DNA of 45,588 nucleotides from a virus (IMGVR_UViG_2531839665_000023); one strand, 5' to 3'; positions 5,503-16,245 are shown, numbered from the stretch's first letter. Numbers and translations are program-made. Notes: a model not told the origin generated them from the sequence alone.

Positions 5503-5865
5503 TTAATGACCTGCTGCGCGTAGTTTTCCGTCAGGTTCACCGGCAAGAGTCAGTAATTGTCCCTGGTCTTCCTGCAGAATAGTCAGGCGACCACCGCGAT
5601 TGACATACATCGGCGTTTCGGTGGTGTCTTCTTCGGAAATTTTCCCGCGGTTAGTCGGGCGAACATATGAGAGTTTGTGTTTGATTTTCACACGGTTCTC
5701 ATCAAATGGTTCGATTTCCAGGTTGAGTGAGACCTTACCTTTGGTTTTCGTGTTCATCACACCGGAAGCGACTTCACTGAGAACTGCGCCGATTTTGGTT
5801 TCAAATACGCCGCCGTCCAGCTCCCCGATAAATGCCTGCACATCAGTACTGCGTTCGCTAGCCAT
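5503..5865 (-). CDS. Hypothetical early-left protein (first gene after PL leader)
   Basis: Track ORF trimmed to the ATG at 5865 preceded by GAGGAG; 120 aa. Confidence 0.65.
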   Translation of the reverse strand: MASERSTDVQAFIGELDGGVFETKIGAVLSEVASGVMNTKTKGKVSLNLEIEPFDENRVKIKHKLSYVRPTNRGKISEEDTTETPMYVNRGGRLTILQEDQGQLLTLAGEPDGKLRAAGH

Positions 5866-6000
5866 TTTGCTGCTCCTCATCATATCGACCCTGCAAGGTC
5901 GGTTGGTTTCTCCACAAAACAGAGAAGAACACCTGCGGTGGCAGCCGCCCGGATGGATTGGGTTATGAACCCGTCGTCCGGTGATGCTCTTCTCTGTTTT

Positions 6001-6048
6001 GTAAAAAGAGCGGTACCAGCCGGAAGCAAGTGTACAAACTGGTACCGC
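6001..6048 (-). terminator. Candidate intrinsic terminator in PL leader (tL-like)
   Basis: Minus strand: GCGGTACCAG - 19-nt loop - CTGGTACCGC followed by TCTTTTT. Confidence 0.5.
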
Positions 6049-6370
6049 CAAAGCAGTGGCTGTTGTGGTGGGGTTGTCACTCAGGCGTATGGTCAACCTG
6101 ACAATCCGGTGTCCTCAACGGGGAAAGAGTAACCCCGCCATACTTACCGCCGCGCCATTTCGCGGATTACCACAACGCTGAGAGCACTTAGCCAGTTACG
6201 GCACCACACTTTGTCGCGGCTCCATAAATGCCCTCATCGTTGCACCCTGGTCTCTTCCCAGGCGTCAAACCGGATCGCCACGCTGGTTAGGCGTCTTATC
6301 AGCATCATCATTGACTTGCACATTCCGGCTACCTGGTTTGTTTGCCCGAGCAAGAAGTGGATTGTCCCCT

Positions 6371-6451
6371 TTAACGTCCCCAGACCGCTAACGACGCATG
6401 TGCCATACGCCGTGTTACAACCAAATTTTGTTTGAATCTTGCCTGCCTCAT
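6371..6451 (-). CDS. Candidate 26-codon Arg-rich mini-ORF at the start of the PL transcript
   Basis: Minus-strand ATG at 6449-6451 about 10 nt downstream of the predicted PL start; encodes MRQARFKQNLVVTRRMAHASLAVWGR; weak ribosome-binding context. Confidence 0.2.
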   Translation of the reverse strand: MRQARFKQNLVVTRRMAHASLAVWGR

Positions 6452-6466
6452 GTTTCTTTTGGATAC

Positions 6467-6494
6467 ATTATGTACCTCATAGGTACATTGTCAA
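6467..6494 (-). promoter_or_regulatory. PL-like early-left promoter
   Basis: Minus strand TTGACA (6489-6494), 16-nt spacer, CATAAT (6467-6472); operator palindrome occupies the spacer. Confidence 0.55.
6471..6487. promoter_or_regulatory. OL operator, 17-bp palindrome TGTACCTCATAGGTACA
   Basis: Same half-sites as the two OR palindromes at 7226 and 7276. Confidence 0.55.
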
Positions 6495-6496
6495 GT

Positions 6497-6520
6497 ATAA
6501 AAAAACCTGCCGAAGCAGGT
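6497..6520 (-). terminator. Intrinsic terminator downstream of cI
   Basis: Minus strand hairpin CCTGC-TTCG-GCAGG followed by a U-run (A-run on plus strand) directly after the cI stop. Confidence 0.7.
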
Positions 6521-6533
6521 TCATAAATATTGA

Positions 6534-7208
6534 TTAGGCCTTTATTGTGTATCTTCTTGGTTTTCCCGAGAAAATCACTGTACCAATTATAGAGCAATTA
6601 CCGTTAATCTTAATGTAAGGCTCAGGCCAGTTTGGGTTTAATGCTTTGAGATAACGCTGTGTTCCATCTTCTATCAATCGCTTGAAGGTGGTTTCGCCTG
6701 TATCGTGCATCAATGCAATAACGTCGTCACCGTGGCAGGCAGGGACTTCGGGATCAACAAAAATCATGTCTCCAGGGCGGTACTCATCAATCATTGAATC
6801 ACCAATCACCCGCAAGATATAAGTCATTTCGCCACAGGGTACAGGGCAGGGATACGTTTCTGCTGTGCTCAAATCAACCTCAGAATAGCCAACTTCTTTC
6901 CATGCTCCGGCCTGTACCCATGATATGACAGGGACTAACGTTATTTGTTTGTTAGTGATTGAAACATCAGGTTTTTTTGTGATGTTCGTTGTCTGGTGTT
7001 CTTGATCAAGCCATCCGACAGGCAGGTCGAAACATTTTTCGATGTGCCGTGCCATGCTGTCACCGATATTTTTAGTAGCGCCATCCCCCATAAACCTGCT
7101 GGTTTGGGTTGGCTCGCGATCAATCATGGTGGCAAAGGATGAATTTCCGCCAACACCATCTCTCAGTTTTCTGGCGTTAGACCGCCGGATGTCATGGATT
7201 GTTTTCAT
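6534..7208 (-). CDS. cI: CI-type prophage repressor, HTH plus S24 LexA-like autopeptidase
   Basis: 224 aa; N-terminal HTH; QAGAW (Ala-Gly cleavage site), GDSM serine and downstream lysine (TFKRL). Confidence 0.9.
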   Translation of the reverse strand: MKTIHDIRRSNARKLRDGVGGNSSFATMIDREPTQTSRFMGDGATKNIGDSMARHIEKCFDLPVGWLDQEHQTTNITKKPDVSITNKQITLVPVISWVQAGAWKEVGYSEVDLSTAETYPCPVPCGEMTYILRVIGDSMIDEYRPGDMIFVDPEVPACHGDDVIALMHDTGETTFKRLIEDGTQRYLKALNPNWPEPYIKINGNCSIIGTVIFSGKPRRYTIKA

Positions 7209-7298: not shown

Positions 7299-7499
7299 AT
7301 GAAAGCGTATTGGGACTCTTTAACCAAAGAACAGCAGGGCGAGTTGGCCGGAAAAGTTGGCTCAACACCTGGCTACTTACGGCTGGTTTTCAATGGTTAT
7401 AAAAAAGCCAGTTTTGTGCTGGCGAAAAAACTTGAGCAATGCACGTCAGGTGCAATTACGAAATCTGACTTAAGACCGGATATCTATCCGAAAGATTAA
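7299..7499 (+). CDS. cro: Cro-like small HTH regulator
   Basis: 66 aa from the ATG preceded by GGAGGT; divergent from cI across the operator region. Confidence 0.75.
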   Translation: MKAYWDSLTKEQQGELAGKVGSTPGYLRLVFNGYKKASFVLAKKLEQCTSGAITKSDLRPDIYPKD

Positions 7500-7530: not shown

Positions 7531-8094
7531 ATGAGGCTAACCGTGGGTAAGTATCACTGGAAAGTAGAAAAACAGCCTGAGTGGTACGTGAAAGCTGTCA
7601 GAAAAACTATCGCAGCGTTGCCGGGTGGTTACGCTGAAGCAGCTGACTGGCTGGATGTAACAGAGAACGCATTATTTAACCGCCTTCGTGCCGATGGCGA
7701 TCAGATTTTCCCGCTGGGATGGGCAATGGTTTTACAGCGTGCGGCTGGCACTCACTACATTGCGGATGCTGTCGCACAGTCTGCTGGTGGGGTGTTCGTA
7801 TCGCTTCCTGAAATTGAGGAAGTAGAGAACGCCGATATAAACCAGCGCCTGCTGGAAGTCATCGAACAGATCGGGAATTACTCAAAGCAGATTCGTTCGG
7901 CAATCGAAGATGGGGTCGTGGAGCCACACGAGCAGACAGCAATTAATGATGAGTTGTATCTGTCAATTTCGAAGCTCCAGGAGCATGCAGCACTGGTCTA
8001 CAAAATCTTTTGCGCTCCAGAAAAGAGTGACGCCCGCGAGTGTGCAGCTCCGGGCGTCGTGGCGTTTTGTGTCTGTGGAGAAACTAACGCATGA
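7531..8094 (+). CDS. Putative CII-like early regulatory protein
   Basis: 187 aa; position directly after cro; family assignment from memory only. Confidence 0.45.
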   Translation: MRLTVGKYHWKVEKQPEWYVKAVRKTIAALPGGYAEAADWLDVTENALFNRLRADGDQIFPLGWAMVLQRAAGTHYIADAVAQSAGGVFVSLPEIEEVENADINQRLLEVIEQIGNYSKQIRSAIEDGVVEPHEQTAINDELYLSISKLQEHAALVYKIFCAPEKSDARECAAPGVVAFCVCGETNA

Positions 8095-8927
8095 ACAGTT
8101 TAACGGCAAATAACCGTTTGTCGCAACAGCTGGTGGTCAGTGTCGCTGAACACCTGTTGTTACGGCATGAATGCAGATTACCAAATCACCTGGCTGTAAG
8201 TAACCACAGAGAACTTTACCTGACTGTGGGGGGCGAGTTGTGCGGGAACTTAACCGCTGGTTTCGTGACGGAAGAGGGCTTTATGTCCATGTTATTCGTT
8301 GGGAACCAGAAACACAGCGCGTTATCTATCTTCGCAAAGACTACCCGCATGAGTGCTTTAGTCCTTTGTGGAAATTCAGGCGTGATTTTGTTGAGTGTGA
8401 AGGACCACCAGCACATTGATTCTGCCATTCCGGGACGTTACACTGTTCAGGCACCTTATAAAGCGGGTGCCGGGATTGGCGTCCTGGAATTGATCAAGGC
8501 GATATATGACGCGCCAGCGTCTTTTTTATCGTCCGCATTTGCTCACATCAAAGTTATGGTGGGCTGGGCGGGGGCATCGAAAGATGCGCCGGTTTCCTTG
8601 ATCACCGGTTACGCCAACCCCGTTCAGTTCACCACCAGCGAAATTGGCGTTTCCGGTGGTGGAAGTATTTCACCGATCAAGGAGGCTGCCATCATGGCTA
8701 CTGTCCCAGCCCTCACTCGTCTGAATGATGAAGACTTACATAAACTCAGTTATGTAACAACTGCACTACGTGCTCTGCGCAAGGTAACTCTTTCGGATCC
8801 GCAGGCGCATCAGGTTCTGGTAGAAACCCTTCTTAACTTGCAGGCTGAACGTATCCGTTTGGTGGATAAGGCTAATTTTCATATTCACCGTCTCCTGAAT
8901 ATCAGCGGAGGGCATCGTCATGCTTAA
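8091..8927 (+). CDS. Hypothetical protein; ORF of doubtful extent
   Basis: Track ORF; N-terminal third is low-complexity and an alternative frame (8240-8419) reads more protein-like; C-terminal part more convincing. Confidence 0.35.
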   Translation: MNSLTANNRLSQQLVVSVAEHLLLRHECRLPNHLAVSNHRELYLTVGGELCGNLTAGFVTEEGFMSMLFVGNQKHSALSIFAKTTRMSALVLCGNSGVILLSVKDHQHIDSAIPGRYTVQAPYKAGAGIGVLELIKAIYDAPASFLSSAFAHIKVMVGWAGASKDAPVSLITGYANPVQFTTSEIGVSGGGSISPIKEAAIMATVPALTRLNDEDLHKLSYVTTALRALRKVTLSDPQAHQVLVETLLNLQAERIRLVDKANFHIHRLLNISGGHRHA

Positions 8928-15447: not shown

Positions 15448-15747
15448 AAAAATTCCTTAATACTGATAACTGGGCGCACTATACACACGTTCCTGAAGAA
15501 AGCTATAGTTTTTTGATGGGGTTGAAGATGGCTGGATGTCTAAAATAAACATTGCTTCATATGTTCAACTATGCGTTAATGATTGCGTCGGTTTGAAGAA
15601 CAGACGATATACGAAGTAGTTTACTAAAGCAGTTCTCATTTCAGGTGTTATTCACTTATTCCTTCTTTGAGTCTCTCCAATTAAGTACGAAGTCGTTTCT
15701 GTTATACAAGCCATTTATGCCGAAAGGCTCAAGTTAAGGAATGTAGA

Positions 15748-15963
15748 ATGTCAAATAAAATGACTGGTTTAGTAAAATGGTTTAACGCTGATAAAGGTTT
15801 TGGCTTTATTTCTCCTGTTGATGGTAGTAAAGATGTGTTTGTGCATTTTTCTGCGATTCAGAATGATAATTTTCGAACCTTATTTGAAGGTCAAAAGGTT
15901 ACCTTCTCTGTAGAGAGTGGTGCTAAAGGTCCTGCAGCAGCAAATGTCATAATTACTGATTAA
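15748..15963 (+). CDS. cspB: Cold-shock protein, CspB-like
   Basis: 71 aa; [21 protein letters not shown] with RNP motifs; csp-type leader with GCCGAAAGGC box before the Shine-Dalgarno. Confidence 0.9.
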
Positions 15964-16245
15964 AATTCATAGTTTGTCTGTATACGATAACGAAGAAGGC
16001 TGATGCCTGAGTGGAGATACAGACTGAGTGGTGAATATTGGATCTCTTTAATAAATAGTAAGGAGGTCCAATACATGAAACAATGGCCAGCATATTTGGC
16101 AATAACTTAATCAGGAAAAGTATGCTAACCATTGTGGTGAAGTGCAGGTTTGCTGCATGAATAGTTTTACAGCAGAAGCTAACTGCTGGCATAGCAAAAC
16201 AAAGTGCGTAAGTGGATGACTCCCACAAAAAGTACCACAATATTA

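Follow-up and report, generated by a model that had tools for sequence, protein, structure and literature searches.

DicF is cut from the polycistronic dicBF RNA, with RNase III giving a species of 190 nt and RNase E a 53-nt form (10.1101/2023.04.14.536235). Its 3' end arises by intrinsic termination or, in read-through RNA, by RNase III cleavage giving a 72-nt form, and dicB lies downstream (PMC5069750). The leader analyzed in this study resembles dicBF of the Qin prophage in that both lie behind a repressor-controlled early-left promoter of a lambdoid element. We found that this leader is a mosaic of conserved RNA modules, the first two of which are here called module A and module B.

Two other types of phage RNA are close enough to be compared. 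Put RNAs act in cis on RNA polymerase via its beta-prime zinc-binding domain and suppress termination. Like the put elements of phage HK022, module A is a promoter-proximal structured RNA on the PL transcript of a lambdoid phage without N, with terminators downstream. Put elements are about 70 nt long, have two stems and occur in both early operons, whereas module A measures 170-250 nt, contains at least seven helices and a pseudoknot, and is single; unlike put, it is also found outside leaders. The C4 RNA of P1 and P7 and the CI RNA of P4 are phage RNAs excised from operon transcripts by host tRNA-processing enzymes. Module A likewise has a link to tRNA, as it always adjoins a tRNA or tRNA-like element. 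However, C4 and CI themselves resemble tRNA and are antisense RNAs of about 77-80 nt, produced in lysogens in the service of immunity, whereas module A is larger, not tRNA-like and lies behind a repressed promoter.

Organization of the Early-Left Region

The window, i.e., the whole stretch of viral DNA analyzed (45,588 nt), is an SfV/cdtI/mEp460-like lambdoid prophage. Its PR operon contains true C4 and isrK matches (Rfam). The genes and signals around the leader are as follows.

7531-8094: CII-like gene, 3' of the cro-like gene
About 7301-7499, plus strand: cro-like gene
6534-7208, minus strand: LexA-type repressor gene
6503-6522, minus strand: terminator of the repressor gene, 8-bp stem and T run
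6467-6494, minus strand: PL, TTGACA-16-CATAAT, with an operator palindrome in the spacer (11/12 matches)
5863-5913, minus strand: conserved GUGGAGAAACCAAC, hairpin CGACCUUGCAGGGUCG (5901-5886), Shine-Dalgarno sequence GAGGAG (5878-5873) and ATG of the yfdP-like gene (5865-5863)
5865-5503, leftward: yfdP-like gene, first of the early-left operon (PHROGs)
5437-4613, leftward: yfdQ-like gene (PHROGs)
Between the yfdQ-like gene and the excisionase gene, leftward: phosphatase and two proteins without known function (PHROGs)
2976-2782, leftward: excisionase, early-left operon (PHROGs)

The palindrome GTACCTATGAGGTAC lies within the PL spacer, and related palindromes are found at PR. PL is the sole strong promoter-like site on the minus strand from cI to the first gene, no second one being found on that strand inside the leader. 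Its position places the transcript start near 6460; with the ATG of the first gene at 5865-5863, the leader is therefore about 590 nt long. On the transcribed strand it contains ORFs of 26, 39, and 66 aa, which are short or start with GTG or TTG and are not conserved; the frame of the first gene also extends upstream into the leader. The 3' 331 nt fold with z = -5.4 relative to shuffled sequences, and the UGUGGAGAAnCUAAC motif with its GC hairpin is seen again ahead of different first genes. PHROGs assigned no N-type antiterminator family to the six early-left proteins or to orf33 of SfV, and the latter is not Arg-rich.

These results bear out much of a sequence-only reading that had preceded the analysis and had described a good PL with an operator in its spacer, a leader without a convincing ORF and an early-left operon without a lambda N-like protein. 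The distance it had given from PL to the first gene (about 600 nt) also stands, whereas the first gene begins at 5865 and not at 5866. It had missed that the first 250 nt of the leader are a discrete and widespread RNA family.

Module A Is a Structured RNA Family

The 5' half of the leader folds into a genuine structured RNA with the following elements.

6415-6170, minus strand: module A, pseudoknotted RNA of about 250 nt
6240-6415, minus strand: core of module A (model R1, 138 bits, E = 4e-44, full model)
6412-6392, minus strand: P1 hairpin, CGGCGUAUG-GCA-CAUGCGUCG
6387-6380 with 6336-6326, minus strand: P2, around a variable insert (alignment A1)
6333-6315, minus strand: invariant 19-mer GGUAGCCGGAAUGUGCAAG (alignment A1)
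Within module A: closing helix around a variable hairpin (alignment A1)
6294-6280, minus strand: P5 hairpin, whose loop AACC pairs with GGUU at 6271-6268 as a pseudoknot (ACC/GGU in alignment A1)
6262-6246, minus strand: P6 hairpin, 5 bp with the 7-nt loop GAAGAGA
6172-6243, minus strand: P7, long hairpin with which module A ends, GCAACGAUGAGGGCA...UGCUCUCAGCGUUGU

Compensatory changes were already present in a first four-way alignment of module A. In alignment A1, which comprises 39 representative sequences, 97.7% of the cells of the 32 proposed pairs are paired, as against 30-44% in controls with the partners shifted by one to three columns. Both sides change in 12 pairs, and none of 500 shuffles reached the observed values. 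P7 has about 15 bp and ends with CAGCGUUGUGG; among 18 variants, eight to nine of its ten upper pairs are kept, with exchanges between AU, GC, and CG. It is the same type of hairpin as the one upstream of module B in Qin. Covariance analysis, which the sequence-only reading had suggested as a check across homologous prophages, reveals an RNA family in the 5' half of the leader. The invariance of the 19-mer is partly built in, because the sequence set was seeded with its exact form. A second pseudoknot is possible between the P1 loop GCACAU and AUGUGC, and it lies beyond the covariation test because both strands are invariant.

Rfam searches of the whole window and of the leader yielded no meaningful hit within the leader. 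Rfam 15 gave no match to module A at gathering scores, and at E <= 10 only a 14.6-bit match on the opposite strand to a Caulobacter sRNA fell over it. The literature searched on the sequence itself, on antiterminator RNAs and on tRNA-linked phage RNAs contained nothing relevant; a preprint on the Pas sRNA concerns the late region and was set aside as a precedent. Module A is apparently undescribed, being absent from Rfam 15 and from the literature searched. We also considered a fragment or mimic of RNase P RNA and discarded it, since the best local match to RNase P RNA of E. coli scores 20 bits and shuffled sequences average 18.

Distribution and Genomic Context of Module A

Retrieval with the exact 19-mer yielded module A in at least 120 viral contigs, representing 106 distinct sequences; a second, independent pattern gave 25 genomic members with strong model scores. 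The module is present in 1593 of 5426 complete E. coli genomes (29%), where none of the copies among the matches listed has an annotation of its own. Carriers include P1, phiV10/epsilon15-like phages, many lambdoid phages and Stx2c-converting phages. Across representative genomes the module is confined to Enterobacteriaceae, with the exception of a single 1.7-kb contig labelled Bacillota. Model R1 found one copy in the 45.6-kb window and none in its PR operon, and no module A in SfV, HK022, Qin, or Tritos.

Module A is a mobile unit that occurs in three unrelated contexts, namely lambdoid leaders, the ban operon of P1 and the cassettes of phiV10/epsilon15-like phages. Loci of the lambdoid type follow the order repressor gene, terminator, promoter with operator palindromes, and module A, with repressors of several sizes. 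In many phages of different immunity types, the module begins 10-70 nt after the repressor-controlled promoter. A promoter site with at least 9/12 matches lies within 220 nt upstream on the sense strand in 36 of 93 contexts, against six to seven in two controls, which amounts to a five- to six-fold enrichment of promoter-like sites. In P1, module A starts directly 3' of tRNA-Ile(CAU), upstream of ban and beside other RNA genes. In phiV10/epsilon15-like phages it forms a separate cassette between the structural genes for portal and terminase, in opposite orientation. In phiV10-like phages it ends at tRNA-Arg(UCU), and in their cassettes a second terminator is followed directly by the ribosome-binding site of the downstream gene.

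A tRNA is flush against module A at about 45% of the loci, either tRNA-Arg(UCU) right after P7 or tRNA-Ile(CAU) right before P1, and locus comparison shows that a tRNA or tRNA-like neighbor accompanies the module constantly. At least one terminator-like site follows on the sense strand in 78 of the 93 distinct contexts. The density of such sites, 1.5 per 900 nt, is not a clean signal because the antisense control is also high (about 1.0). Spurious antisense ORFs that fall within the structured part confound an analysis of the orientation of the nearest ORF.

The cassette also occurs without a downstream gene, another point missed by the sequence-only reading. At locus L064, a promoter, module A, a tRNA-like element, and two terminators are followed by a 9-codon ORF and a bidirectional terminator that faces a convergent gene of 491 aa. 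Since no gene lies downstream, the RNA itself appears to be the product of this cassette, although the cassette could be a decayed remnant.

The Leader as a Mosaic

According to BLAST against phage genomes, 2H10, cdtI, Ayreon, and Stx2c phages carry the complete leader with 98% identity and mEp460 carries it with 89%; its parts also occur separately. The segment 6426-6170 alone is found in P1, P7, D6, phiV10, TL-2011b, and typing phage 10, the segment 6176-6054 in Evi, Tritos, and the PPompW prophages, and the segment 6050-5860 in SfII, ST64B, and phiNP.

The order of the parts recurs across loci. Module A is followed by tRNA-Arg or by a tRNA-like element closed by GUUGUGG/CCACAAC, which in related leaders often has T-arm-like hairpins and an NCCA tail. 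Next come a small hairpin AUCACG...CGUGAU and the sequence GCUGUGUGUAGUCUUGGCGG with a further hairpin and its U tract, and the series closes with a long hairpin whose end reads UUGUGGAGAAnCUAAC, a GC hairpin and the ribosome-binding site. Long hairpins of the P7 type are present in two or three copies per related leader. SfV shares the immunity region, the terminator hairpin and the early-left genes with the window but has lost module A to an insertion comprising orf33 and an apparent reverse ORF; it retains the 3' end of P7, a variant of module B, the hairpin and the long hairpin.

The 3' Half of the Leader Resembles the dicF Locus

The 3' half of the leader is constructed like the dicF locus, which the sequence-only reading had also missed. 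Three elements make up this part.

6054-6176, minus strand: module B, cloverleaf-like, closed by GUUGUGGU (6176-6169) with ACCACAAC (6069-6062)
6003-6060, minus strand: hairpin at the DicF position, stem 6048-6039/6019-6010, tail UCUUUUU (6009-6003)
5914-6002, minus strand: long hairpin that begins where the U tract ends, with arms at 6002-5978 and 5938-5914

Module B is identical at 110 of 123 positions (89%) to the segment just upstream of DicF in Qin of E. coli K-12. In the closing stem, one pair differs by an exchange of U-A for C-G. Alignment of the window leader with Qin and Tritos (alignment A4) shows module B to be homologous to the body of the DicF precursor of 190 nt; it folds with three arms. 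In other cassettes, this position is taken by a genuine tRNA-Arg(UCU) or by variants in which D- and T-like arms and a closing stem resembling an acceptor stem can be made out by eye. ARAGORN reported no tRNA or tmRNA in the window, and we rejected a tRNA, an intron-containing tRNA and tmRNA as identities of module B, as ARAGORN found none in it or its variants at default settings and gave inconsistent results for the variants at 80% thresholds.

The hairpin that follows has a perfect 10-bp stem and a 19-nt loop, with a U tract behind it. A simple scan for terminators, whose loop limit was 8 nt, overlooked the hairpin for that reason alone. GC-rich and directly followed by the U tract on the transcribed strand, it is a predicted intrinsic terminator. 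A hairpin with a U tract is kept at the DicF position in relatives, with different stem sequences, and transcripts from PL have to pass it, as the sequence-only reading had stated for a terminator-like hairpin at 6001-6048. That reading had noted that the tail CGCUCUUUUU resembles boxA. The resemblance is not conserved; CGCUCUUUUU is part of the terminator stem and the U tract, and relatives read CCGUCCUUUUU, CGCCCCUUUU, or GGGCAUUUUUUU instead. The RfaH ops element GGCGGTAGCGTG is similar to two sequences of the leader, GGCGGUACCAGU at the terminator and GGUAGCC within module A. The motif varies among relatives, and the G at position 8, which closes the ops hairpin, is a C in the window motif; by inspection alone, ops was therefore also dismissed.

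The position of the hairpin is that of DicF, i.e., after a hairpin and module B, with an intrinsic terminator at its end and genes expressed by read-through beyond. It can be aligned with DicF via UUUGGCGGUAYCAGUUU ... CCGCYCUUUUU, with 42 of 66 columns identical. The two have the 5' arm in common and differ in the 3' half, and the window hairpin lacks most of the DicF 5' end, which is the part that pairs with xylR. The Rfam DicF model (RF00039), which scores 72.5 bits on DicF of Tritos, gave no match at E <= 10 in searches of 901 and 241 nt. A DicF-like regulatory role is unproven, because this model fails and most of the 5' end is missing.

Directly after the U tract, the perfect 15-bp inverted repeat reported earlier (5914-5928/5988-6002) proved to extend to arms of 25 nt with 84% complementarity. 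The arms of this long hairpin change in a compensatory manner in four related sequences (L021, L094, L135, and L166), e.g., ACACAACACACAAG with CUUUUGUGUUGUGU. By position, it corresponds to the stem that RNase III cuts in the read-through dicBF RNA to give the 72-nt DicF (PMC5069750).

Qin, Tritos, and the window thus have in common a hairpin ending with GUUGUGG, module B and a hairpin with a U tract, continued by a long stem from the U tract and by protein genes that need read-through. In Tritos, the module B homologue lies directly upstream of the annotated DicF. The full order in Qin is ydfC, a long hairpin (ACGCGAAAGCGCA...GUCGUUAAAU...GUGCGCUUCCGGUUGUGG), module B, DicF, an STnc100-like element and dicB. 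In the window it is the core of module A, P7, module B, the hairpin with its U tract, the long hairpin and the yfdP-like gene. Qin has ydfA, ydfB, and ydfC in place of module A, and the downstream genes differ as well (yfdP- and yfdQ-like genes in the window, dicB in Qin). Counting 190 nt back from the 3' end of K-12 DicF leads into the 3' arm of the upstream hairpin, making P7 a likely RNase III site by position.

A Proposed Multi-RNA Precursor

We consider it about an even chance (roughly 0.5) that the PL leader is a multi-RNA precursor resembling the 5' part of dicBF with an RNA gene added in front, rather than an antitermination device, and that the early-left genes are expressed by read-through. 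Upon derepression, PL would transcribe first the pseudoknotted module A (about 250 nt, with P7 as its last helix) and second module B, a presumably tRNA-derived cloverleaf. The third product would be the hairpin at the DicF position, which would double as an intrinsic terminator where many transcripts end, and the fourth the long hairpin followed by the yfdP-like mRNA. Cleavage by RNase III in P7 would free module A and leave a species of about 170-190 nt with module B and the hairpin, from which RNase E could trim a small RNA of about 55-60 nt. Polymerases reading through would produce the early-left mRNA, as for dicB downstream of DicF, and the long hairpin is a likely RNase III site that would fix the 5' end of this mRNA. 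These putative cleavage sites are carried over from Qin by their position, and we infer partial termination as well as any activity of module A.

Module A itself would be a self-contained early RNA product, whose folded core may act on a conserved component of the host. The invariant nucleotides at its junctions, its restriction to Enterobacteriaceae and its tRNA neighbor together suggest such a role, and the constancy of the tRNA or tRNA-like neighbor points to tRNA or translation. Tentatively, although we hold this to be well short of probable, module A may represent a new class of large phage RNA whose direct target, early in the lytic cycle, is a core host machine. It might make RNA polymerase resistant to terminators through a fold without relation to put, or engage tRNA-Arg(UCU) or the translation apparatus through its P6 loop, which resembles that of an anticodon arm. 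Against the precursor reading stands the fact that module A occupies the 5' end of early transcripts and is always followed by one or two terminators; this location, together with the second terminator in phiV10-like cassettes, also looks like that of a cis-acting antiterminator.

Possible Antitermination by the Leader RNA

The foremost alternative, which we regard as rather unlikely, is that nascent module A binds its own polymerase in the manner of put and makes it resistant to the terminators in and beyond the leader, so that only transcripts started at PL reach the early-left genes. The short distance between module A and repressor-controlled promoters in many phages agrees with this, as putL holds an equivalent position (PMC9378689). 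So do the terminator-like sites in 78 of 93 contexts, with two terminators ahead of the ribosome-binding site in phiV10-like cassettes, and the absence of an N-like gene. The invariant unpaired nucleotides suggest a conserved host target, and their very high conservation agrees equally well with RNA polymerase and with any other host target as the binding partner.

A direct relation to put is not supported by the models. The put model (R2), built from seven putL and ten putR sequences, recognizes those of HK022 with 88 and 74 bits but returned no match in the leader (5866-6494) at E <= 10, even with filters switched off. Conversely, HK022 contains no match to the model of module A. The 5' ends of putL and module A both carry ACGGCG...CAUGCGUCG..AGCG, which would speak for a put-like role. 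By our estimate, a chance match of the 9-mer CAUGCGUCG is expected about 0.15 times. We take it as chance, because neither model finds the other family. HK022 has both putL and putR, whereas the window contains a single module A and none in its PR operon.

The genomic context is also difficult to reconcile with antitermination. SfV retains the terminator and the early-left genes without module A. The cassette of L064 has no downstream gene, and its three terminators guard a convergent gene where an antiterminator would be harmful. No terminator was noted between module A and ban in P1, the sense count of terminators is not clean against its antisense control, and the dicBF architecture works without any such factor (10.1101/2023.04.14.536235). 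The RNA-based antitermination proposed by the sequence-only reading therefore survives in part: the leader is indeed structured and non-coding, but it does not match put of HK022, and a role of module A in antitermination, while possible, is the weaker reading and no longer needed for explaining the anatomy of the leader.

It is improbable that module A works as a riboswitch or T-box that sets read-through of the terminator in response to a ligand, possibly tRNA-Arg(UCU). Its complexity, pseudoknots, and invariant junctions are riboswitch-like. There is complementarity between the AGA in the center of the P6 loop and the UCU anticodon of the tRNA-Arg located after module A in phiV10-like cassettes; in addition, UGGC, which many of the terminators have at their 5' base, could pair with a 3' end reading GCCA. 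Complementarities of 3 and 4 nt are, however, well within chance and beyond the covariation test; copies of the P1 type keep AGA although they lie beside tRNA-Ile, and UGGC is absent from L034 and L073. Furthermore, the terminator lies 150-300 nt away behind interchangeable inserts (a tRNA, module B, an ORF in L066, a reverse gene in L042), an alternative antiterminator pairing was not found, and no Rfam riboswitch family matches.

The small-peptide antitermination also proposed earlier, in which the Arg-rich ORF of 26 codons (6371-6451) or another leader ORF would encode a miniature N-like antiterminator, has next to no likelihood: the mini-ORF exists, starts about 9 nt from the presumed transcript start and encodes five Arg among its 26 residues, but it lacks a Shine-Dalgarno sequence, an in-frame TAA stands in place of its 5' part in leaders of the mEp460 type (overall identity 89%), its body lies in P1 and P2 with their paired compensatory RNA changes, the sequences upstream are wholly different among members of the module A family, and an unsystematic look noticed no boxB-like nut site.

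Implications for Phage Leaders and Their Annotation

Module A is a covarying RNA of riboswitch-like complexity that has remained without annotation in well-studied genomes, including P1, Stx2c-converting phages, and 29% of the complete E. coli genomes, and it lends itself directly to structural and functional studies. If it promotes read-through, it would provide a second, unrelated route to protein-free processive antitermination. On the reading of the leader as a multi-RNA precursor, the early-left genes of SfV-, cdtI-, and mEp460-like phages, including xis, lie behind a cluster of non-coding RNAs and a terminator. As the logic of the leader is the same as that of dicBF, the DicF paradigm would extend to a family of modular leaders composed of long hairpins, tRNA-derived elements, and sRNAs that end with a terminator.

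Spurious ORFs are often annotated in such leaders, and several genome records place hypothetical ORFs on either strand. STnc100 (RF02076), a prophage sRNA, has no match in the window's own leader. SfV has an alternative form of module B, which Qin and Tritos carry downstream of DicF; together with its terminator, this form reaches 33-40 bits against the STnc100 family, below the gathering threshold of 47, indicating that parts of such leaders have already been catalogued as sRNA genes.

Related leaders in other phages

Phage SfV (L002, 2640-3200) and the window have PL, cI, the terminator-like hairpin and the early-left genes in common. SfV has no module A, the pseudoknotted RNA of the window's leader. 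This position instead holds orf33, whose 98-aa product is not rich in Arg, together with what looks like a reverse ORF. The final bases of P7 (UUAGCGUUGUGG), the long hairpin that terminates module A, are kept in SfV and adjoin a variant of module B, the cloverleaf-like element, that resembles the prophage sRNA family STnc100.

In phage P1 (L005, 782-883 and 3012-3194), a dicF-like region is annotated close to the promoter of the ban operon, which also contains three tRNA genes. Module A, here lacking P7, is located between tRNA-Ile and ban. The P1 ban operon is therefore an early operon rich in RNA genes. The module A query matched the P1 records at two places.

The module A cassette of an epsilon15-like viral contig (L064, 4730-5400) contains no cargo gene. 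It runs from a promoter with a TTACCnnnnnGGTAA palindrome through module A, a tRNA-like element and two terminators to a 9-codon ORF, and is followed by a bidirectional terminator that faces a convergent 491-aa gene. Another compared locus (L006) encodes a 124-aa gene at the corresponding place, with its ribosome-binding site directly 3' of the second terminator.

A recurrent long hairpin and alternative pairings

Many leaders share one type of long hairpin, which has ACAAC...GUUGUGG at its base, is purine-rich in its 5' arm and often contains GUCGUUAAAU in its loop (Escherichia coli K-12 Qin, L242, 1378-1458; loci L022, L043 and others). It is found 5' of module A, as P7, and 3' of the terminator. 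The position of the Qin copy matches the start of the 190-nt DicF species, which depends on RNase III. The GUUGUGG sequence is invariant and has two possible pairing partners, the hairpin's own 5' arm and the CCACAAC that ends the tRNA-like element, an arrangement suggestive of mutually exclusive folds.

At 5866-6060 of the window (minus strand), the minimum-free-energy fold joins two segments just 5' of the terminator-like hairpin, CUGCUUU and AGCCA, to the translation start of the yfdP-like first gene: their respective partners are GGAGCAG, in the Shine-Dalgarno region, and UGGCU, at the start codon. Such long-range pairing could mask translation of this gene.

Other RNA matches and ORFs in the window

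Two Rfam matches above threshold are contained in a single ORF of the PR operon:

8091-8927, ORF containing both matches
8451-8527, plus strand, isrK, 64 bits
8552-8639, plus strand, C4 antisense RNA, 82 bits

The SfV counterpart of this ORF is annotated as 'immunity region.' The isrK and C4 pair is also present in SfV and mEp460, with weak c4-a1b1 target-site matches, and looks like a P1 immI-like RNA control module within a lambdoid phage.

Further features were found elsewhere:

15587-16026, plus strand, cspA thermoregulator family, full-length, 157 bits
19053-19458, plus strand, cspA thermoregulator family, full-length, 117 bits
44055-44253, plus strand, IS009 RNA, full-length, close to the right end, 221 bits
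386-1609, plus strand, 407-aa ORF at the left end

Given the two full-length thermoregulator matches, the prophage has two cold-shock-protein-like genes bearing cspA-type 5' leaders. IS009 is listed among the RNAs flanking the prophage sRNA PasB (2026 preprint). The 407-aa ORF and the excisionase gene, at 2782-2976 on the minus strand, have opposite orientations.
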